DNA of 64,000 bases from Patescibacteria group bacterium (GCA_041649575.1 JBAZMW010000004.1:21687-85686), one strand, 5' to 3'; counted from the first letter of the stretch, positions 4,875 through 34,717 are shown. Notes: a model not told the origin generated them from the sequence alone. Translations and numbers: made by a program.

Positions 4875-6011
4875 ATGGCTCTTTCGGAGCTCCAGCAGAC
4901 GCAGGAACTGATCAGAAAAAACAAATCAATACTGATAATCTTCAAAAAAGACTGGTCGGGCGATGCCGCAGCCAGCTCCTTGGCTTTGGCGGAAACCCTA
5001 AGAAAACTGGATAAAGCGGTGGAAATCGTCTGTCAGGATTTTAAGCCGACAACCAGCCTTAATTTTTTGCCGTTGTCACAAATTAAAAACAGCCTGATCA
5101 ATCTGCAAAAATTTATCATCAGTATTAACACTTCGCAAACCCAGGTGGGTGAATTTTATTATGACCACCAGGAAAACCGCCTGAACATCTACTTAACGCC
5201 GCAGAACGGCCAACTGGAAGCCAAGGACGTCACCACTGCCATTTCCGATTATAAATATGATCTAATTTTTATCATTAATTCTCCGGACCTGGCTTCTTTA
5301 GGCGAGGCCTATGAAAGGCAGCCGGATTTCTTCTTCAATACTCCTAAAATAAATCTGGATCATTCCAACCGCAACGAATATTTTGGCGACGTCAATTTGG
5401 TCAATATCACTTCGGCCGCCAGCGCTGAAATAGCCTACGAGCTGATAAAAAGTCTGGGCGACAAGCTGATTGACGATAATATTGCCACCTATCTATTGGC
5501 GGGAATTATTTTTTCTACCAAAAATTTCAAAGTTTCCAATCTCACTCCCAAAACCTTAAGCATTGCCAGCTTGCTGGTACACTATGGGGCGCGGCGAGAA
5601 CAAATCATCCAAGCCATTTACCAAAATAAATTTTTATCGACCCTGAAGCTCTGGGGCCGAGTTTTATCAAGACTCAACAACGACTTAGACGATCGCCTGG
5701 TGTGGTCGAGCTTGTCGGTTCAGGACTTTCTGGAGACTGCCACTACGCCCGAGGAGATTTTAGACGTGGTGGAAGAGCTGATTGTCTCCATGCCCAAAAC
5801 GGATGTGGTGGTGCTCTTGCACGAGGGCCGGGACATAAACAAAAAAGAGGTCTGCTGTTTGGTTTACGCTGTCAAAAACGGCAATGCCCTCTTTCTTAGT
5901 AAAAGATTCGAGCCCAGCGGTAACAGTGAGATTGCTAAATTCTCTTTAAACAACCTTTCCTTGGCCGAAGCCGAGAGGCTGGTAATCGGTGAGATAAAAA
6001 GCAAGCTGTAA
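4875..6011 (+). CDS. DHH/DHHA1-like phosphoesterase family protein (divergent NrnA paralog; start uncertain, TTG at 4812 possible)
   Basis: Architecture resembles NrnA at 18157..19107, but the D-x-D, DHH and GGGH motifs are degenerate (DWSGDAAASSLAL, LDHSN). Confidence 0.45.
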   Translation: MALSELQQTQELIRKNKSILIIFKKDWSGDAAASSLALAETLRKLDKAVEIVCQDFKPTTSLNFLPLSQIKNSLINLQKFIISINTSQTQVGEFYYDHQENRLNIYLTPQNGQLEAKDVTTAISDYKYDLIFIINSPDLASLGEAYERQPDFFFNTPKINLDHSNRNEYFGDVNLVNITSAASAEIAYELIKSLGDKLIDDNIATYLLAGIIFSTKNFKVSNLTPKTLSIASLLVHYGARREQIIQAIYQNKFLSTLKLWGRVLSRLNNDLDDRLVWSSLSVQDFLETATTPEEILDVVEELIVSMPKTDVVVLLHEGRDINKKEVCCLVYAVKNGNALFLSKRFEPSGNSEIAKFSLNNLSLAEAERLVIGEIKSKL

Positions 6012-6079
6012 GCTAATCTTGAAAATTCGAAAAAAATAGGTTATATTAATAACACTGTTTATTAAAAATCGCTAGATAA

Positions 6080-6152
6080 GGGCCAGTAGCTCAGGGGTTA
6101 GAGCACCGCTCTTATAAAGCGGGGGTCGGTGGTTCAAATCCACCCTGGCCTA
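6080..6152 (+). tRNA. tRNA-Ile2-like with anticodon UAU (decodes AUA)
   Basis: 73-nt cloverleaf GGGCCAG/CTGGCCT; anticodon stem CCGCT/AGCGG, loop CUUAUAA; T-loop TTCAAAT; body resembles bacterial ileX but has T34 instead of C34. Confidence 0.7.
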
Positions 6153-6315
6153 CAAAAACAAATTGGAATTAAAAGTTAATTGTTTTTAAAAAAGTAAAGA
6201 CTGACATTAAAGTGGATTTGAAGGGCAGTAATGAGCCAAATCCCGCCACCGGCGGGATGAAGGCGAGACGCCCGCCAAATCCGAGCAAGCGCAGGATTTG
6301 GCGCTGCCCCGGACC

Positions 6316-6335
6316 CAAATCCACCCTGGCCTACA
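6316..6335 (+). repeat. 20-bp direct repeat of the 3' end of tRNA-Ile(UAU) (copy of 6135..6154)
   Basis: CAAATCCACCCTGGCCTACA occurs at both 6135-6154 and 6316-6335, flanking a 161-bp insert. Confidence 0.8.
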
Positions 6336-6342
6336 AGAATGA

Positions 6343-6416
6343 GGACGGCTAGCTCAGTTGGTTAGAGCACTATCTTGACGTGATAGGGGTCAGAGGTTCG
6401 AATCCTCTGCCGTCCA
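6343..6416 (+). tRNA. tRNA-Val (anticodon GAC)
   Basis: Acceptor GGACGGC/GCCGTCC, D-arm GCTCAGTTGGTTAGAGC, anticodon loop TTGACGT, T-arm AGAGGTTCGAATCCTCT. Confidence 0.85.
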
Positions 6417-6479
6417 TAACTTAAAAGTTCCCACTACTGGTGGGAGCTTTTACTTTAAGCCTGTTTAAAAAAAATAAAA

Positions 6480-6962
6480 CTAAATATTTCTCTCCAATAC
6501 TAAATCATAATCCTTAAACCCCTCTCTTCTGTAAAACCTGATTGCTCTAAAATTTTGAGCACTGGCGACGACACGAACTCTTTTAGCCTTCTTCAGCCGG
6601 CACCATTTAATAAATTCTTTAAATAATTTGCCTCCGATTCCCAGGCTACGGAATTTTTCAAGCACGAACATATTTTCGGCTTCTGCCAATTTAGATATTG
6701 TTCTATATTCTTCGGCCTCAACAATACCACCGACTAGATAACCAATAACTTTATTTTCTAAAACAGCTACTAAGGCACAGCCGCTCCTTATTCTTTTTTT
6801 GAAATACTTTTCACTAGGATCGCTAAGTGAATAGTCCTTATCAATGGTCTGATCAAACTCCGCATACTCTTTTAAACAAAGACGGTGATTTAAGTCTTGG
6901 ATGTCTTTAAAATCTTTAAGGGTGGCAAATTTAATTTTTGGTTTCATATATTTATCTGCCAA
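6480..6962 (-). CDS. GNAT family N-acetyltransferase
   Basis: 160 aa with acetyl-CoA binding motifs (VIGYLVGG ... RSLGIGGKLF ... FYRREGF). Confidence 0.75.
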   Translation of the reverse strand: MADKYMKPKIKFATLKDFKDIQDLNHRLCLKEYAEFDQTIDKDYSLSDPSEKYFKKRIRSGCALVAVLENKVIGYLVGGIVEAEEYRTISKLAEAENMFVLEKFRSLGIGGKLFKEFIKWCRLKKAKRVRVVASAQNFRAIRFYRREGFKDYDLVLERNI

Positions 6963-13759: not shown

Positions 13760-13785
13760 GCTCTCGTAGTGAAATGGATATCACG
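13760..13785 (+). repeat. duplicated 5' half of tRNA-Arg (acceptor + D-arm), 25/26 identical to 13812-13837
   Basis: GCTCTCGTAGTGAAATGGATATCACG matches GCCCTCGTAGTGAAATGGATATCACG. Confidence 0.75.
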
Positions 13786-13811
13786 ACAGACTCCTGCCCG
13801 CCACTGCCTAC

Positions 13812-13883
13812 GCCCTCGTAGTGAAATGGATATCACGCTTGGCTTCGGACCAAGAATTTTGGGTTCGAATCCTGACGAGGGCG
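13812..13883 (+). tRNA. tRNA-Arg (anticodon UCG)
   Basis: Acceptor GCCCTCG/CGAGGGC, D-arm GTGA-AATGGATA-TCAC, anticodon arm CTTGG-CTTCGGA-CCAAG, T-arm TTGGG-TTCGAAT-CCTGA. Confidence 0.75.
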
Positions 13884-13916
13884 TTGGCGATGGCAGGCGG
13901 GTCGGATCTGTTATTG

Positions 13917-13940
13917 GGGGTTCGAATCCTGACGAGGGCG
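13917..13940 (+). repeat. duplicated 3' portion of tRNA-Arg (T-arm + acceptor 3' strand)
   Basis: GGGTTCGAATCCTGACGAGGGCGTT is identical to 13861-13885; the intervening spacers (13786-13811 and 13884-13916) are partly reverse-complementary. Confidence 0.7.
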
Positions 13941-14061
13941 TTACCGCGTGGGATGTTAGCTTCCGCCTCGGCTCGCTTTGTTCGCCAAGGCGAGACAGGC
14001 AGCTAGGCTACGGATCAGACTGGAAGAGTATGATAAACAATTTACATAAAACGAGTAATAT

Positions 14062-23928: not shown

Positions 23929-24367
23929 TTAGACCTGGGCGGCCTTGCGAAAACGAAGTTGCTCCACGGTGATGCCCAGAGACCTGGCTTCGGCAGCATC
24001 GCTCTTCTGCCTGCCGAGGCTGTTTGCGGCTTTGCGGGCCTTGGCCTTGGCCACGTTGACGGTTGTTCGTTGACTGGTCAAAAACGGCCGATAGTCATAC
24101 TTGCTGCGCTGCCCGCCGGAACGTAACGAACCCGCTCCGCCTTTAGCGCTGGAGGATTGACCGACCCCCCCCCTGCTGATGTTTGGGGACAGACGTCGAG
24201 GCGTTGGTCGCTGAAGCATGTGCTCGATTGCCCATGTATCTCTTGTGGCGACTTTTTCCGTCGTCGCCGGAACGGTCACCTTTCCCTTTCCTGGCCATGG
24301 CTGTTCCTTTCCGCACGGAGTGCTCCAAACAAGACAAACAGAATGTACATGCAAAAAAACTTATCAC
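23929..24367 (-). pseudogene. small Lys/Arg/Gly-rich protein gene (KGG-repeat stress-protein-like?) interrupted by a frameshift at a G10 homopolymer
   Basis: RBS AGGAA followed by ATG at 24300 (MARKGKGDRSGDDGK ...); the frame ends 15 codons past the (G)10 run at 24167-24176 and a protein-like frame (...SAKGGAGSLRSGGQRSKYDY...) continues at -1; about 60% GC. Confidence 0.35.
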
Positions 24368-24485
24368 AACAGATAAAAATAGTCAATTTGATTTATCTCG
24401 CTAACCCGTTTAATTCCAGTTCTTTTCTATAACAAAAATAATCACCAAAAAGGTGATTATTTTTTGCTAAGCGGGTAACGGGAAT

Positions 24486-24633
24486 TACGCGTCGCTCCCT
24501 GCCTACCGGTAGGCAGGCGCTCCTTGCCCTGGGTTGGCAGCAGACCTGCCACCGGCAGGTCTGCTGACGTTCGACCTCATCACTTCGTGATTTGTCTCAC
24601 TGCCAACCCGTTCGATTCCCGTTAATTTCTGTT
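24486..24633 (-). repeat. 148-bp GC-rich hairpin-rich insert between tRNA-Gly and a duplicated copy of its 3' end
   Basis: 17-bp direct repeats AAGCGGGTAACGGGAAT at 24469-24485 and 24634-24650; insert holds palindromes CCTGCCTACCGGTAGGCAGG, CAGCAGACCTGCC-acc-GGCAGGTCTGCTG and GGGTTGGCAG/CTGCCAACCC. Confidence 0.65.
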
Positions 24634-24634
24634 A

Positions 24635-24709
24635 AGCGGGTAACGGGAATCGAACCCGTATTTCCACCTTGGAAGGGTGGCATAATAACCATTATACTAT
24701 ACCCGCGCT
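24635..24709 (-). tRNA. tRNA-Gly (anticodon UCC)
   Basis: Minus strand: GCGGGTA ... CCACC-CTTCCAA-GGTGG ... ACGGGTTCGATTCCCGT-TACCCGC-T. Confidence 0.8.
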
Positions 24710-24837: not shown

Positions 24838-24880
24838 GTCGGGGTGACAGGACTTGAACCTGCGACCTCTTACTCCTTCA
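24838..24880 (-). pseudogene. tRNA-like 3' fragment (T-arm + acceptor 3' strand), 3' half of an outer tRNA-like gene enclosing tRNA-Pro(UGG)
   Basis: Minus strand: TGAAGGAGTAAGAGGTC-GCAGGTTCAAGTCCTGT-CACCCCG-ACA; no D or anticodon arm immediately upstream. Confidence 0.55.
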
Positions 24881-24896
24881 CCCTGTTAAATAATTG

Positions 24897-24970
24897 TCGG
24901 AGTAGTGGGATTTGAACCCACGATCTCCTGCTCCCAAAGCAGGCGCGATAGCCAGCTTCGCTATACTCCG
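24897..24970 (-). tRNA. tRNA-Pro (anticodon UGG)
   Basis: Minus strand: CGGAGTA-TA-GCGAAGCTGGCTATCGC-G-CCTGC-TTTGGGA-GCAGG-AGATC-GTGGGTTCAAATCCCAC-TACTCCG-A. Confidence 0.8.
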
Positions 24971-24979
24971 GTAATTTAA

Positions 24980-25021
24980 CAGGGCGAGAAGCAAGCGCTC
25001 TAGCCAACTGAGCTACACCCC
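24980..25021 (-). pseudogene. tRNA-like 5' half (acceptor + D-arm + 5' strand of a long helix), 5' half of the outer tRNA-like gene
   Basis: Minus strand: GGGGTGT-AG-CTCAGTTGGCTAGAGC-G-CTTGCTTCTCG-CCCTG; acceptor GGGGTGT is complementary to CACCCC at 24843-24848. Confidence 0.55.
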
Positions 25022-25088
25022 GTATTAAAACAAACAATCAACAACGATGAGCGCATTGTCAATTGCAAATCGTTAACTGTTTTGAGTA

Positions 25089-25235: not shown

Positions 25236-25300
25236 CACTGTGCGCATACCTGGATTTGAAGTCTGGACCTTCCCGATATATCGGGACGCTCTAATTAAAT
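25236..25300 (-). pseudogene. partial tRNA-Ile-like copy (D-arm end, variant anticodon arm, T-arm, acceptor 3' strand)
   Basis: Minus strand: TTAGAGCG-TCCCGATATATCGGGA-AGGTC-CAGACTTCAAATCCAGG-TATGCGC-A; matches the 3' two-thirds of tRNA-Ile(GAU) except the anticodon arm. Confidence 0.55.
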
Positions 25301-25527
25301 CCTCTAGATACTTTCGCGACTTCATTCTTTTTAAACAACTCTCTCTTCTGATTGCCTCTTTTTTGTCCTCGTATTCTTCATGATAGACTAATTTTTAAGG
25401 CTTTTTATTGCTGGTGTACCGGCCTGTAGAGCTATTATGCTGGCGAATTCTCTTTTCCAAATCAGAAGAGTAACCAATATAGTAGCTACCATCTCTTTCG
25501 CTTTGCAAGATATAAAGGCAATGCATG

Positions 25528-25601
25528 TGCGCATACCTGGATTTGAACCAGGGACCTCGTCATTATCAGTGACGCGCTCTAACCAACTGAGCTATATGCG
25601 C
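25528..25601 (-). tRNA. tRNA-Ile (anticodon GAU)
   Basis: Minus strand: GCGCATA-TA-GCTCAGTTGGTTAGAGC-G-CGTCA-CTGATAA-TGACG-AGGTC-CCTGGTTCAAATCCAGG-TATGCGC-A. Confidence 0.85.
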
Positions 25602-25604
25602 TTA

Positions 25605-25731
25605 ATTTTAAACCTGGGACCTTCCCGATATATCGGGACGCTCTACCAACTTTTCAATCCCGACTTGTCGGGGGGAGCCCCGCCCGACTGAACGGCGTTC
25701 AGCCGTTCGGGCGGGTATATGCGCTTAAATT
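25605..25731 (-). pseudogene. degenerate tRNA-Ile-like copy carrying a 66-nt GC-rich palindromic insert in the D-arm
   Basis: Minus strand: GCGCATATA + CCCGCCCGAACGGCTGAACGCCGTTCAGTCGGGCGGGG... + TTGGTAGAGCG + TCCCGATATATCGGGA + AGGTCCCAGG; shares the variant anticodon arm with 25236-25300. Confidence 0.5.
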
Positions 25732-25841: not shown

Positions 25842-26234
25842 TCAGAAAGGTACTGGCTGGCACCTGGATTGTTCCAGGCCTTCTTTTAAGGCGCTGGCCA
25901 GTTCATCTCTACTACCCCAATAGCAGACCGCATCCAGCCCATTTGGCTCTGTCAATGGAGCACGAGTCACCCCAATTAAGAACGGCCTGGGCCGACAACG
26001 CCGAAAATGTTTGACAACTTCTTCCGCGCCAGGATGTTGAAAGTCGACTATCAGGATTTGCGGCCGCATTACGCCTTGTAATTCCTTGCTGTTGACGACA
26101 CTGGTGATGGTGACCTGGGGATTGCTTCCATACCAATTAACACCAAGATCGTCAATGGCCCAGTCTTTGGCGCCTCGCCAGAGCTCCAAAGCCGATTGGG
26201 TATTGACGGCCAAAAAGGTTACCAGTGTGGGCAT
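25842..26234 (-). CDS. hypothetical protein (130 aa), GC-rich, own promoter; weak paralog of the next gene
   Basis: RBS GGGAGG; promoter TTGTCA-17-TAATAA; palindrome TTAACCAAGCGGTTAA between the -10 and the RBS; shares an ILIVDF/ILFIDF block with 26378..26893. Confidence 0.45.
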   Translation of the reverse strand: MPTLVTFLAVNTQSALELWRGAKDWAIDDLGVNWYGSNPQVTITSVVNSKELQGVMRPQILIVDFQHPGAEEVVKHFRRCRPRPFLIGVTRAPLTEPNGLDAVCYWGSRDELASALKEGLEQSRCQPVPF

Positions 26235-26377
26235 GGTTAGATCCTCCCTTAAAGAACAGCTCGACCAAATTAACCGCTTGGTTAATTATTAACATGCCAT
26301 AAAAAATTTGACAAGAAAAAGCCGTGCGCGAGGCAACGGCTCAAATCGCTCCCAATCTGTCGGAAGGGAGCGGCGTA

Positions 26378-26893
26378 CTAGAAGGGAATAATGTCGCTGA
26401 TGGCGTCTTCCAATCCTTGACTGGTCCTGGCGCAGAGGTCGAATTCCTCACAAACCATCGGGTCGTTGGGATAATGATCGTGATAAGGAACGACTACAAT
26501 ATGGAGCGCCGGGTTGTTGCGCAAGAAAGGCGGCAACGCCTCATCGGCCTCTGTGTGATCGTTACAAATCACGACGATGAACGGTTCGAACTCGACTAAG
26601 CGCCAAAGCTGCGAGTCACGTATGTCAGCAAACATGACCCTAAAATCGCCGTAACGATAACGACGGGTGCCAAGCCACAGCTCTTTCATCTGCGTCGGCT
26701 CAAAATCGATGAACAGAATGCGTGTGCCGTTTCCTTCAAGCACCTCGACTTCGTACTCCATTGACTCAACTGGTGGCGGGATCAAACGCTCCTGCGGCGG
26801 TGGCGCTACTGGTTCCTCCTCCCGAGTCTCCAGCCAATCCAAAAAGTCTGCGCCACATTCTGCCAGGGTTGCCGGCGCCGTTGACATGGCCAT
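26378..26893 (-). CDS. hypothetical protein (171 aa), GC-rich
   Basis: AAGGAG RBS 8 nt upstream of ATG; lies downstream of the 16S terminator; no recognisable domain. Confidence 0.45.
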   Translation of the reverse strand: MAMSTAPATLAECGADFLDWLETREEEPVAPPPQERLIPPPVESMEYEVEVLEGNGTRILFIDFEPTQMKELWLGTRRYRYGDFRVMFADIRDSQLWRLVEFEPFIVVICNDHTEADEALPPFLRNNPALHIVVVPYHDHYPNDPMVCEEFDLCARTSQGLEDAISDIIPF

Positions 26894-26960
26894 TCTCCTT
26901 CTGTTGCATACTAAAGTGCTTTATAAAAGAATTTAAAACAAAATACCAAAAAAAGCAAAT

Positions 26961-26985
26961 ACAAAAACCCCGCCCAAAGGCGGGG
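26961..26985 (-). terminator. intrinsic terminator downstream of 16S rRNA
   Basis: Minus strand: CCCCGCC-tttg-GGCGGGGTTTTTGT. Confidence 0.6.
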
Positions 26986-27098
26986 CAGTTGTTGTGACAA
27001 CTAAAAAGCGACAAAAAGTTTGTAAGCCCTCTTCCCGCCTAATGGCGGGACGACCTATCATAGATGTGACTTTTAAAAAGTCACATCAATTTCTCCCT

Positions 27099-28577
<1,479 letters not shown>

Positions 28578-28869
28578 AAAAAATTTGCAACTAGATTACG
28601 GCCAGTTGCCAACCGTATGAAACATTGCTTCGCTAGAAAGCGAAGATGCTTTGTTCAAAGAAAAATAACTTGGGCTTACGCTTTTTGTCACTTTTTAGTT
28701 GTCAAATTGCCTTTTTCCTCCGCTTTCAAGCGGAAAGAAAAAACAGAGGGATCCGATTTGGCGAACTCTCGTTTCAGGCGAGAATTCTGTCAGATACCAC
28801 TGTTTTCCCTCAAAATCTAAATTTTAGGAATTTTTTAAGAATGTTTTGTGCTTATTAGTCTGCCCTATT

Positions 28870-32569: not shown

Positions 32570-32593
32570 AAAACCATCTACCGATCAAGGCCG

Positions 32594-33451
32594 CTAGGCC
32601 TTGGCGATGACGGCGCGAGTTGCCTCAACCGCCGCCACGACGTCGGCCAGCATCATGCGCTGACCGCGGGGACTGCCGGCGATGCCCGCGTGCCCGCCGG
32701 CCGCCTCGCCCCAAAGCCCCTGCACGATCTCTCGTGCCGAGACTCCGGGGATCGGGTCGGCGATAGACACTGTCACCGCACCGGTGACTGTGTTGAAGGC
32801 GACAACAGCTTTCGCCAAGTCGCCTTCCGGGTCGACGTACAGATGGCTGACAAACGTGTCCGCCACCCGCACTGCCACCCCGCCGCCAGCCTCGACGAAC
32901 GATTGCGCATTCAGCGCGACCTCCGCCGAGCGGAACGCCTCGCCCGCCGCGAGAAGTTCCGGGTCGTCAGCGCAAATGCGCTCAACGACCCTGACGGCCT
33001 CCATCACCTGCTCGGTGACTTCGGCCGCGCTGCCGTCGCGCGGGGGCAGGCAGCGGTGACCGTTGCTCCACGCCCAGAAAGCGTAGAGCCGGACGATGTC
33101 GGCTGGCTCGGCGCCGGCTTGGCCTAGCTTGTGCGGACCGTTGAGGTCCACAAAAGCTGCCAGGAGCCAGAATCCCGGCGTCTCGGGCTTGCGACCGAGA
33201 ACGGCCGCACAGCCGCCGACGGAATCGAGATCAAGGTGGGAAAGTCCCACCGCCTCGACTTCACCAGCCGCGCCGTTGTCGGCGAGGCAGGGGGCGGGGT
33301 TGCCCGCCCGCGGCCCGTGATGGGCCAGGGTTGCGACGGACCCGGCGACACACTCGTCGCCGAATTCCGCCTCAACCGAAGCGGTCAGGCCGAAGGGGGC
33401 GAGGACGGCGGCCAATGCGGCCGCATGGTTTGAAATAAAAAACTTCGTCAT
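32594..33451 (-). CDS. hypothetical protein C (285 aa), about 68% GC; faint DHH/DHHA1-like motifs (HLDLDSVGG ... AAGGHAGIAGSP)
   Basis: RBS AGGAGA 7 nt upstream of ATG; longest frame in the region; the motif resemblance is weak and unverified. Confidence 0.45.
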   Translation of the reverse strand: MTKFFISNHAAALAAVLAPFGLTASVEAEFGDECVAGSVATLAHHGPRAGNPAPCLADNGAAGEVEAVGLSHLDLDSVGGCAAVLGRKPETPGFWLLAAFVDLNGPHKLGQAGAEPADIVRLYAFWAWSNGHRCLPPRDGSAAEVTEQVMEAVRVVERICADDPELLAAGEAFRSAEVALNAQSFVEAGGGVAVRVADTFVSHLYVDPEGDLAKAVVAFNTVTGAVTVSIADPIPGVSAREIVQGLWGEAAGGHAGIAGSPRGQRMMLADVVAAVEATRAVIAKA

Positions 33452-33560
33452 GGCTTATCTCCTCTCTCGGAGTTTCAGCGCGCCACGCGCTGTGCCTCTC
33501 TCTGGTTTATCAAACCCTGCAAGCGAGAGACAAACTGGCAACTCCGCGCCGACAACCGGT

Positions 33561-33724
33561 GCAGAGTTTTTTCCTCAAGCCCCGCAAACTCACATTGTTT
33601 GCGAAGCCAGTTGGAAGGAGGAGACAGAAAAACCACTCTGACTCCTCCGGATAACCTTGTTTGCGTTTGTAACGAGGCCGCCGCCTCCGATTGTTTGACC
33701 TCTAACAATCGTAAAGGAGTGTTC
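33561..33724. repeat. island repeat, long copy 1 (164 nt, multi-hairpin)
   Basis: About 96% identical to 34422-34585; contains the TGCGAAGCCAGTTGGAAGGAGGAG core plus hairpins GGAGGAGACAGA/TCTGACTCCTCC, GCAAAC/GTTTGC and CGATTGTT/AACAATCG. Confidence 0.75.
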
Positions 33725-33762
33725 AGATTAAGGCCTAACACACAAGGTCTTTCTGGCGTGAC

Positions 33763-34333
33763 CTACTCGGACAGCGTGATGATCAGGTCTTTGACCTGAT
33801 CATCACGCTCAGACCAGACGGCGTTGGCTGGCTTCTGCCACCACCGCTTCTTCGGTGCGCCCCATTCGGCGGCGCATTCAGCGAAGTGGCTGCAATCCCC
33901 CCCCGAATCCGCGCAACAGAGCGCGTAATACGCGGCTAGCGCTCGGCGTTCGGCCGCGATACCAGAGGAGGAGCAGCAGAAGGCAGCGACGTCACCCGCT
34001 ACCTTTTTCGCCCGGGCGAGTTGCTCCGGAGAACTTACATTCTCCAGATAACCGCGGGCCCACTCTTCAACATCCGCGATGTCGCACATCGCGGCATGCT
34101 GCGCTACGATCCTTCTGGAAACGCGCACAGCCCACTTATTCGCTAGCTCCTTGGCTAGCGAATAAGAGGCGAGGCAAATGATTTCGTAGCTTGAAAATTT
34201 CCACGAAATCAGAGCATCCACGTCCTCCCTCCTAAACTCATTGCCCGCCCCATACCAGCGGCGGGCCACTTCTCTTTCGCATTTAGGAAAGCTCCTGAGA
34301 GCTTCCCTCAGGGTTCTGTACCTTTTCAAGTTC
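33763..34333 (-). CDS. hypothetical protein B (190 aa) of GC-rich island
   Basis: RBS GGAAAGGAGAGAGAG-ATG; the longer upstream frame is an artefact of running into repeat copy 2. Confidence 0.5.
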
Positions 34334-34421
34334 ATCTCTCTCTCCTTTCCGGATGTGGCCGAGATGTGGCCGGTCCCCTCGGAAACTACCATATATCCAA
34401 AACTCCGCACCGACCATCGGC

Positions 34422-34585
34422 GCAGAGTTTTTTCCTCAGGCCCCGCAAACTCACATTGTTTGCGAAGCCAGTTGGAAGGAGGAGACAGAAAAACCACTCT
34501 GACTCCTCCAAATAACCTTGTTTGCGTTTGTAATGAGGCCGCCGCCTCCGACTGTTTGACCTCTAACAATCGTAAAGGAGTGTTC
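34422..34585. repeat. island repeat, long copy 2
   Basis: Near-identical to 33561-33724. Confidence 0.75.
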
Positions 34586-34717
34586 TAATTAAGCTCTTGC
34601 GAGCCGGCCTAACACACAAGGCCGTTTGCCCATGATTTTACGCGGATGGCTTCTGCCCTTGACACGGGCCAAGGACTTTACCGCAACCGCCGAAGCGGGC
34701 TGTGAGGACGCCGAAGG

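Follow-up and report, generated by a model that had tools for sequence, protein, structure and literature searches.

A structured insert beside tRNA-Ile(UAU) in a Patescibacteria genome belongs to a family of small modules lying 3' of tRNA genes

We analysed a 64,000-nt stretch of DNA, here called the window, from an uncultured Patescibacteria group bacterium (GCA_041649575.1, JBAZMW010000004.1:21687-85686), in which the genes for tRNA-Ile(UAU) and tRNA-Val(GAC) are separated by a short insert bounded by two copies of the tRNA-Ile 3' end. It is firmly supported that this is a real insertion and a member of a family of small structured modules found 3' of tRNA genes, and equally firm support exists for the two hallmarks of the family, a duplicated tRNA 3' end and a segment antisense to the particular target (x'). 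The explanation we favour, with a probability of about one half, is that the insert is a non-autonomous module of tRNA-invading cassettes that spread by break-induced copying and in their fullest forms carry a GIY-YIG nuclease gene and a whole replacement tRNA.

The repeated tRNA end is exact. A 20-mer, CAAATCCACCCTGGCCTACA, occurs at 6135-6154 and again at 6316-6335, and a search of the window that tolerated up to three mismatches gave no third site; 0 of 100 dinucleotide-preserving shuffles contained a match. Alignment by blastn stretched the identity to 21 nt, CAAATCCACCCTGGCCTACA(A), with 6135-6155 equal to 6316-6336. The first copy (X1) runs from T-loop position 56 of tRNA-Ile(UAU) to the discriminator base and two to three trailer bases. 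The displaced copy (X2) ends 7 nt before the start of tRNA-Val(GAC) when taken as the 20-mer and lies 6 nt from it when taken as the 21-mer; of the two copies, X2 is thus the one with a short distance to tRNA-Val, as in the uninterrupted relative L008. The same arrangement of tRNA-Ile, insert and tRNA-Val was found, identical, in a second public assembly of the same genome (L018), so the insert is no artefact of one assembly. A 20-bp duplication of the tRNA-Ile(UAU) 3' end, proposed in an original prediction made from the window alone, was thus borne out as exact, unexpected by chance and present in both assemblies. The inserted DNA amounts to 181 bp (6135-6315 or, equivalently, 6156-6336) and consists of an AT-rich spacer, x' and a GC-rich core with two helices. 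The parts of the locus are listed here, R1 being a covariance model that is described below.

6019-6047, plus strand: promoter-like site TTGAAA-17-TATATT, 5' of tRNA-Ile (consensus match only)
6080-6153, plus strand: tRNA-Ile(UAU), intact gene (ARAGORN; Rfam tRNA 71.4 bits)
6135-6155, plus strand: X1, first 21-nt repeat copy, part of the functional tRNA-Ile
6156-6211, plus strand: AT-rich spacer with weak A/U hairpins only (composition, fold)
6212-6222, plus strand: x', GTGGATTTGAA, exact reverse complement of tRNA-Ile positions 54-64 (TTCAAATCCAC)
6223-6315, plus strand: conserved GC-rich core (alignment, model R1 84.5 bits, covariation)
6223-6228 and 6304-6309, plus strand: outer core helix P1, GGGCAG/CTGCCC (alignment, R1)
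6242-6256, plus strand: copy-specific hairpin CCCGCC-ACC-GGCGGG (minimum-free-energy fold)
6274-6282 and 6294-6302, plus strand: inner core helix P2, GCCAAATCC/GGATTTGGC, with conserved loop GAGCAAGCGCA
6310-6315, plus strand: core linker CGGACC (alignment)
6316-6336, plus strand: X2, displaced second copy of the tRNA-Ile 3' end (exact repeat, blastn)
6343-6416, plus strand: tRNA-Val(GAC), conserved neighbour of tRNA-Ile(UAU) in relatives (ARAGORN, Rfam)

The insert had been described as half AT-rich and half GC-rich, which agrees with a GC content of about 0.27 over 6155-6211 against 0.63-0.65 over 6216-6315, and the two hairpins proposed for it are both present in the minimum-free-energy fold. 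This fold reaches -63.2 kcal/mol (z = -5.8 against shuffles). x' directly abuts the core, and 9 bp of pairing between x' and the start of X2 close the whole element into one multibranched stem-loop. The core also holds a purine-rich stretch and GCGAG-type motifs. There is no open reading frame (ORF) in 6155-6315, and a scan of the spacer (6156-6211) gave no terminator on the plus strand. With Rfam 15, only tRNAs and 16S rRNA reached the gathering score in the window, and matches at E up to 10 within 6120-6345 were noise only. The group I intron model (RF00028) scored 9.3 bits against a threshold of 50 (E = 5.7), and tRNA-Ile is contiguous.

The window is core chromosome, with dnaA, dnaN, polA, 16S rRNA and aminoacyl-tRNA synthetase genes, and the DHH-family protein flanking the locus is identical to a protein of a Patescibacteria MAG and has Falkowbacteria- or Buchananbacteria-like nearest relatives at no more than 67% identity. 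A search of reference genomes for orthologues returned just one distant Buchananbacteria locus, without tRNAs there; usable orthologous junctions came through protein homologues and the contigs that encode them. Across these relatives the order of valyl-tRNA synthetase, DHH protein, a variable stretch and the CCA-adding enzyme is kept, as is the tRNA-Ile(UAU)/tRNA-Val(GAC) pair. The two tRNA genes are 18 nt apart and uninterrupted in L008-L010, an empty junction known solely from a distant relative (about 64% protein identity). In L003 and L004 the same junction is filled by 1.7 kb containing a short helix-turn-helix ORF and a 436-aa ORF; this DNA has neither a tRNA 3'-end repeat nor an R1 core and is therefore a different insertion. 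In L006 and L007 a chimeric pseudo-tRNA occupies the junction together with a 5' piece of tRNA-Val and a GC-rich element, and in L007 a 10-nt spacer leads to the weak chimeric tRNA. Given the 18-nt spacer in L008-L010 and the different DNA at the same place elsewhere, the DNA between the repeat copies is evidently an insertion relative to the orthologous loci, as had been predicted from the window, and by the same comparison the Ile-Val junction is evidently an insertion hot spot in this group. A conserved Ile/Val processing structure common to all relatives, which the prediction had named as the opposing case, was not found: the junction varies.

The other junctions have features of their own. 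The 1.7-kb insertion lies at 4276-6012 of L003 (also in L004 and L005); its helix-turn-helix part is a 41-aa fragment, its 436-aa ORF has no Pfam match, and CGCGCGAAGCGCG hairpins lie near both of its ends. The weak chimeric tRNA of L007 (5175-5249, Rfam 36.7 bits) has acceptor strands that mismatch each other. At 5264-5412 of L007 there follow a 57-nt tRNA-Val 5' copy (88% identical, leader included), the core and a T-loop fragment, AGTTCAATTCTC, which resembles that of a Pro-type tRNA.

The Ile core of the window can be aligned with the GC-rich element of L007, and P2 shows compensating changes between the two. A strict pattern made from these two sequences, for which about 0.5 chance matches were estimated, matched three loci in metagenome contigs: L007's own contig, L012 just 3' of tRNA-Gly(GCC) and L013 just 3' of tRNA-Pro(CGG). 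We trained the covariance model R1 on four cores, namely the Ile core of the window and those of L007, L012 and L013. As the Ile copy is in the training set, independent support comes from two untrained copies, one at 24526-24608 on the minus strand of the window, beside tRNA-Gly (30 bits, E = 2e-4), and one 3' of tRNA-Ser(CGA) in L019, from the same genome but outside the window (29.6 bits, E = 6e-5). Seven cores were found in all, three of them in this genome (at tRNA-Ile, tRNA-Gly and tRNA-Ser), and the family spreads over at least six kinds of tRNA gene and four assembled contig sets. Every core is on the strand of its adjacent tRNA (7 of 7), and six of the seven lie downstream of it and are followed by a fragment that runs from the T arm to the 3' end. 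The Ile copy shows the full set of family features: P1/P2 covariation, an adjacent tRNA on its own strand, x' before the core and a T-arm fragment after it.

Among six distinct core sequences, 97.8% of cells were paired and 12 of 15 pairs change on both sides, counts that rest on a model-fitted alignment; 0 of 500 shuffles reached this covariation, and it collapsed when the partners were slid by 1-3 columns. Fold z-scores of four copies were -5.8, -5.7, -4.8 and -3.1, and the closing helix, P1 and P2 recur in the folds of the other copies. The structure of the core is, on this comparative evidence, under selection. A protein-coding core was considered and rejected, as the indels between copies have lengths indivisible by three (the cores measure 66-93 nt). 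The module family is apparently undescribed; we found no description of this tRNA-module arrangement in the literature, which is weak evidence of novelty.

Two explanations that need no mobile element can be set against these data. Under the first, the repeat arose by a local accident, through slippage during replication or the decay of a tandem tRNA duplication, and the hairpins are there by coincidence. Fragments of tRNAs and chimeric pseudo-tRNAs are indeed common at these loci, but spacer and core are unlike tRNA-Ile except in x', the repeat is exact where zero chance matches are expected, and the presence of the same core at seven sites effectively refutes the idea, which we regard as extremely improbable.

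Under the second explanation, the insert is a functional spacer RNA between tRNA-Ile and tRNA-Val, which would help the precursor to be processed or folded, or would be a stable small RNA. The promoter-like site at 6019-6047, by consensus match the sole sigma-70-like site in 5950-6520, is likely to be the start of a tRNA-Ile/insert/tRNA-Val transcript, and with a terminator-like hairpin 3' of tRNA-Val it suggests that the insert is probably co-transcribed; the strong fold with its covariation and the constant placement of cores on the tRNA strand would also suit an RNA. However, the insert is missing from orthologous loci, the tRNA beside a core varies from genome to genome, Rfam gives no match, and sequestering of the spare 3' fragment failed an in-silico test in which x' was shuffled. 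We consider a functional spacer very unlikely.

The shuffle test concerned x' as a clamp against mis-pairing of the spare 3' end, a role that was rejected: pairing was unchanged with x' shuffled or replaced, and partition-function folding of 6080-6342 gave, for all x' variants, 0.69-0.72 for the T stem with X1 and 0.97 for the acceptor 5' strand with X2. In the equilibrium ensemble of 6080-6342, the tRNA 5' acceptor strand thus pairs with the distal copy X2 at a probability of 0.97 and the T stem uses the proximal copy X1; the relevance of this hinges on co-transcriptional folding.

x' is a perfect antisense copy of part of the T arm of the neighbouring tRNA, of 11 nt at Ile, 15 nt at Gly, 11 nt at Ser and 11 nt in L012; it is interrupted in L013, and L007 has none. 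At 4 of the 6 loci tested it lies 0-1 nt from the core, with lengths that at most 1 of 5000 shuffles reached (0 of 5000 for each of the 11-nt Ile and 15-nt Gly segments). The match of x' to the intact tRNA extends further than that to the displaced copy (11 v 9 nt at Ile, 15 v 9 nt at Gly). The tRNA fragment after the core starts in or just before the T-loop and either adjoins the core or is separated from it by a single extra hairpin.

Fragment after the core, Ile (window): 21 nt
Fragment after the core, Gly (window): 18 nt
Fragment after the core, Ser (L019): 17 nt
Fragment after the core, Pro (L013): 32 nt, 7 trailer bases included
Fragment after the core, L012 and L007: a piece of a different tRNA

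The repeats carry trailer bases and no added CCA, so they were copied as DNA and not from mature tRNA; the exception is the foreign fragment of L012, which ends in CCA. The cores of L011 (at tRNA-Val) and L013 (at tRNA-Pro), found on separate contigs from one metagenome sample, share 93% identity and adjoin different tRNAs. Identity of the Ile core is 64-68% with cores on other contigs and 51-56% with the Gly and Ser cores from the genome it belongs to, and these two share 70% with each other; the distance of the Ile core from the Gly and Ser cores means that two subfamilies occur in one genome. As judged from these identities, the core family appears to have moved between tRNA sites.

The original prediction invoked integrase-mediated integration, and a classical attachment-site (att) scar would mean that a tyrosine-integrase island or prophage entered the T-loop of tRNA-Ile, duplicated the att core (the tRNA 3' end) and later lost its integrase and cargo by deletion, so that attL, remnants of the arms and attR stayed behind, the core being a conserved attP arm with repeated protein-binding motifs of the GCGAG type. 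The placement of the repeat suits this well: it begins in the T-loop and runs 2-7 nt beyond the tRNA end, and Williams is said to have described, in 2002, a T-loop class of integrase sites with the same repeat placement. A direct repeat of a tRNA 3' end flanking DNA that relatives lack, at a junction that is an insertion hot spot in those relatives, is likewise in keeping with it, as are iterated AAGNCGAG-like motifs in the core, which recall arm-type binding sites.

However, no integrase came to light. A Pfam scan of all 59 window ORFs of at least 90 aa gave no tyrosine or serine recombinase, integrase, resolvase or transposase, and the gene tables of L018 and L019, which add about 20 kb of flank from the same genome, list no recombinase, so that the predicted integrase-mediated event found no enzyme. 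None was seen beside any of the seven cores (the ORFs of L012 and L013 being taken from their listing without a Pfam scan), and L012 has only an IS3-like transposase, its translation judged by eye, on the far side of the tRNA cluster. The insert had no blastn match in phage and plasmid collections, nor the strict core pattern in viral contigs. Seven independent deletions that all left the same module of about 100 nt would be unlikely, covariation and a target-specific x' are not expected of an arm remnant, and repeat lengths range from 9 to 57 nt. We therefore think a classical scar unlikely. The alternatives of the original prediction, a remnant or a non-autonomous element, part company here: non-autonomous is supported, whereas scar or remnant says too little in view of the covarying core, x' and the recurrence elsewhere.

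The sole mobile-type protein met with the core family is a stand-alone GIY-YIG nuclease, in L013 and L019. The order in L013 is a 5' tRNA fragment, an intact 90-aa GIY-YIG gene, a full tRNA-Pro(CGG), spacer, x', core and a 3' fragment; the two outer fragments together make up one cloverleaf, and a single inserted block can account for the locus. The tRNA-Ser locus of the window's own genome (L019) has the same composite order with an intact 85-aa GIY-YIG. By tblastn the window has one such gene only, between tRNA-Ile(GAU) and a 5'-truncated tRNA copy, with its TAA at the position of a conserved Trp.

25293-25526, minus strand: stand-alone GIY-YIG nuclease gene with one in-frame TAA (Pfam PF01541, E = 4e-11; translation)
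25527-25601, minus strand: tRNA-Ile(GAU), neighbour of the GIY-YIG gene
25239-25260, minus strand: 22-nt repeat of the tRNA-Ile(GAU) 3' end, which ends the 5'-truncated tRNA copy

We examined GIY-YIG homologues in eight further contigs. Within this clade, 10 of 10 loci with readable flanks abut a tRNA gene or tRNA-like sequence, most with partial tRNA duplications alongside, and the usual setting is a 5' pseudo-fragment with a CCGAY...RTCGG palindrome upstream or a truncated copy downstream. The proteins are of the UPF0213 type, bare nuclease domains whose nearest structures are 1ZG2 and 1YWL. In L013-L017 and L019-L022, the 83-90-aa GIY-YIG genes often overlap the first bases of the adjoining tRNA gene. 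The palindrome, CCGAY-N(3-7)-RTCGG, usually lies 10-25 nt before the GIY-YIG start codon, often inside the 5' pseudo-tRNA, and displaced tRNA fragments near these genes have GC-rich hairpins inserted in their D or T loops. The idea that the core always accompanies GIY-YIG was rejected, eight GIY-YIG/tRNA cassettes being without a core.

On the favoured explanation, the module would have entered the T-loop region of tRNA-Ile(UAU), the tRNA gene staying whole as one copy of the 3' end completes it and the other is displaced beyond the insert. x' and the displaced T-arm fragment would pair, closing the element as one large stem-loop. The fullest cassette would comprise a 5' tRNA fragment, an 85-90-aa GIY-YIG gene, a full tRNA, spacer, x', core and a 3' fragment, and we infer that the Ile element may be the 3' module of such a cassette, its nuclease part lost or its nuclease supplied from elsewhere. 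It may have spread by break-induced copying or by recombination across conserved tRNA segments, with no integrase borne by the element. Both the identity of the moving enzyme and the choice of DNA or RNA as the acting folded form stand at the level of inference.

Several points weigh against this explanation. Just 2 of the 7 cores are physically joined to a GIY-YIG gene, and the eight other GIY-YIG/tRNA cassettes have no core, so core and GIY-YIG could be independent parasites of tRNA genes that are sometimes co-located. The surroundings of the Ile element hold no GIY-YIG gene, and tRNA-Ile is not preceded by a 5' fragment. Classical homing makes no target duplications and leaves x' unexplained, and the 85-90-aa GIY-YIG proteins have no obvious DNA-binding domain, making sequence-specific homing putative. 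A repeat from the T-loop to past the tRNA end is also the textbook signature of a tyrosine integrase, and the integrase search covered about 85 kb of the genome, so such a gene may lie elsewhere. The family itself comprises seven copies in four contig sets, with pair counts taken from the model-fitted alignment.

x' is better served by an att site that works in folded form. Here a single-stranded or circular element would present x' as a duplex that mimics the T arm, a host Xer-like recombinase would recombine it with the tRNA gene, as occurs at integron attC sites or the CTX-phage attP(+), and the presence of GIY-YIG genes nearby would be coincidental. Adjoining the core, x' forms with the repeat a 9-15-bp duplex copy of the target, and its longer match to the intact tRNA leaves the T-loop region unpaired; folded att sites such as attC and that of CTX have unpaired central regions. 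The covariation of the hairpins suits single-stranded DNA as well as RNA, one crossover within the shared segment gives exactly the observed repeat, and of the alternatives this one explains x' best. Against it, the window and about 20 kb of flank hold no identified recombinase, no circular junction or free form was observed, and the 3' fragments of L012 and L007, from non-adjacent tRNAs, call for extra steps. The argument is purely anatomical, and we hold this mechanism to be doubtful.

A related possibility retains the nuclease: x', core and tRNA fragment may together be a folded guide or att site that picks tRNA T arms by pairing or duplex mimicry and is cut or pasted by a structure-specific, domain-only GIY-YIG at the tips of hairpins or cruciforms. 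On this view every breakpoint in a D, anticodon or T loop would be the tip of a hairpin. We offer this tentatively, as an improbable variant.

Set beside known systems, the tRNA-Ile insert resembles the T-loop sites of tyrosine integrases (P4-type att sites and genomic islands) in its position from T-loop to 3' end, in a repeat that extends into the trailer and in the regenerated tRNA. Unlike them, it has no integrase or cargo and measures only about 160 bp, and a covarying two-helix core with an antisense copy of the target is foreign to att scars. Integron attC sites and the CTX-phage attP(+) offer an anatomical likeness only, in a hairpin stem that makes the duplex target, in structure conserved above sequence and in an unpaired centre; the target here is a tRNA T arm instead of attI or dif, and no IntI or Xer was identified. 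Miniature inverted-repeat transposable elements and PATE-type elements are similar in size (about 100-200 bp), lack of an ORF, hairpin richness, copy number above one and an enzyme presumably supplied from elsewhere. They differ from the present family, in which transposon-type ends are absent: the inverted repeat (x' and X2) is not fixed but differs at each site, being copied from the local tRNA, and the target duplications, 17, 18, 21 and 32 nt across copies, are not of one length and are segments (17-32 nt) of a functional gene. No cognate transposase was found.

SegB of phage T4 is a free-standing GIY-YIG homing endonuclease encoded in a tRNA gene cluster (PMC2330249, PMC13096335). It shares with the present cassettes a GIY-YIG gene among tRNA genes, with the tRNA region as presumed target, and a non-reciprocal spread in which tRNA segments are rearranged or amplified (PMC2330249, PMC13096335). 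The GIY-YIG proteins described here, by contrast, are chromosomal, of 85-90 aa and domain-only, with no obvious DNA-binding domain, and their genes have partial tRNA duplications and palindromic hairpins at their flanks; a nuclease gene is absent from the Ile insert itself. Group I introns in Patescibacteria tRNA genes sit in the anticodon loop (35/36), are catalytic and require splicing (PMC13011429). They share with the insert the phylum, structured RNA-like DNA in tRNA genes and very small host genomes, whereas tRNA-Ile(UAU) is contiguous and its insert lies in or beyond the T-loop with a duplication (PMC13011429). What is known, then, is mobile DNA that targets and regenerates tRNA genes; that a new structure-directed or pairing-directed mechanism of insertion is at work we think unlikely at present.

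The second element of the window lies at tRNA-Gly(UCC).

24635-24706, minus strand: tRNA-Gly(UCC) gene, host of the second window element
24610-24624, minus strand: x' of the Gly element, TAACGGGAATCGAAC, 15 nt, antisense to the T arm of tRNA-Gly(UCC)
24526-24608, minus strand: Gly core, second subtype, P1 GGGTTGGCAG/CTGCCAACCC (R1 30 bits; fold z = -5.7)
24468-24485, minus strand: displaced 18-nt tRNA-Gly 3' end, ATTCCCGTTACCCGCTTA, repeat of 24634-24651

The resemblance of the Gly locus to the Ile locus, also part of the original prediction, stands as to the footprint (the 18-nt repeat) and a related element, and falls as to the ACC/GGT hairpin. We rejected the ACC-loop hairpin as a feature common to both inserts, since it is specific to Ile; P1 and P2 are what the two share. 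Just past the displaced tRNA-Gly fragment there is a GC-rich block of about 400 bp (23934-24460) whose ORFs, for example one of 141 aa at 23929-24354 on the minus strand, have no Pfam match; the tRNA cluster may end here in additional foreign DNA.

Of the 11 tRNA genes in about 85 kb of this genome, at least 6 have partial tRNA copies, nested tRNAs, GIY-YIG genes or cores at their flanks. At 13761-13942 (plus strand), a complete tRNA-Arg(UCG) (13811-13884) is nested between two tRNA-Arg halves, 5' GCTCTCG...ACAGACTCCT and 3' TCGGATCTGT...CGAGGGCG, at the tip of a GC-rich helix, CCCGCC...GGCGGG. Put together, the outer halves make a valid cloverleaf whose anticodon is UCG or CCU; in the relative L011, ordinary tRNA-Arg(UCG) and tRNA-Lys(CUU) genes occupy this position. 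At 24838-25022 (minus strand), tRNA-Pro(UGG) (24896-24970) is nested in a split tRNA with a Pro-like acceptor stem, CGGGGTG, and is flanked by an 11-13-bp inverted repeat, CCCTGTTAAAT/ATTTAACAGGG. The outer halves join to a cloverleaf with anticodon CUC, and ARAGORN with introns allowed made no call of the outer gene. The tRNA-Ile(GAU) locus (25239-25724, minus strand) is a pile of tRNA debris, with a 9-nt 5' end, GCGCATATA, followed by about 68 nt of GC hairpins at the D-loop position, and two copies of a pseudo-fragment with a perfectly palindromic 'anticodon arm', TCCCGATATATCGGGA.

Other parts of the window also stand out. Two ORFs without Pfam match, of 171 aa at 26378-26893 and 130 aa at 25842-26234 (stretch 25842-27100, minus strand), come after the 16S rRNA gene (27101-28583, minus strand) and ahead of the tRNA cluster; the window contains no 23S rRNA gene, so the rRNA genes appear to be unlinked. 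At 32573-34593 the GC content reaches 0.83 in 60-nt windows, against 0.45 for the window overall. This region overlaps two ORFs without Pfam match (285 and 268 aa) and includes a 193-nt direct repeat, 33540-33732 and 34401-34593, that is 94% identical.

Patescibacteria genomes are about 1 Mb and have few spare tRNA genes. If the cores are mobile, tRNA genes would be a main habitat of selfish DNA in Patescibacteria, and from them would come turnover of tRNA genes, chimeric tRNAs and errors in annotation. R1, together with a search for displaced 3' ends, provides a means to find such elements. An antisense target segment next to a folded core, with no recombinase seen, is a lead to nucleic-acid-directed or structure-directed insertion, and with a candidate enzyme of only 85-90 aa the mechanism is directly testable. 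Should the folded guide prove true, these modules would be an unrecognised class of tRNA-parasitic element in Patescibacteria, one that rebuilds its tRNA or brings a replacement and so makes its own insertion harmless.

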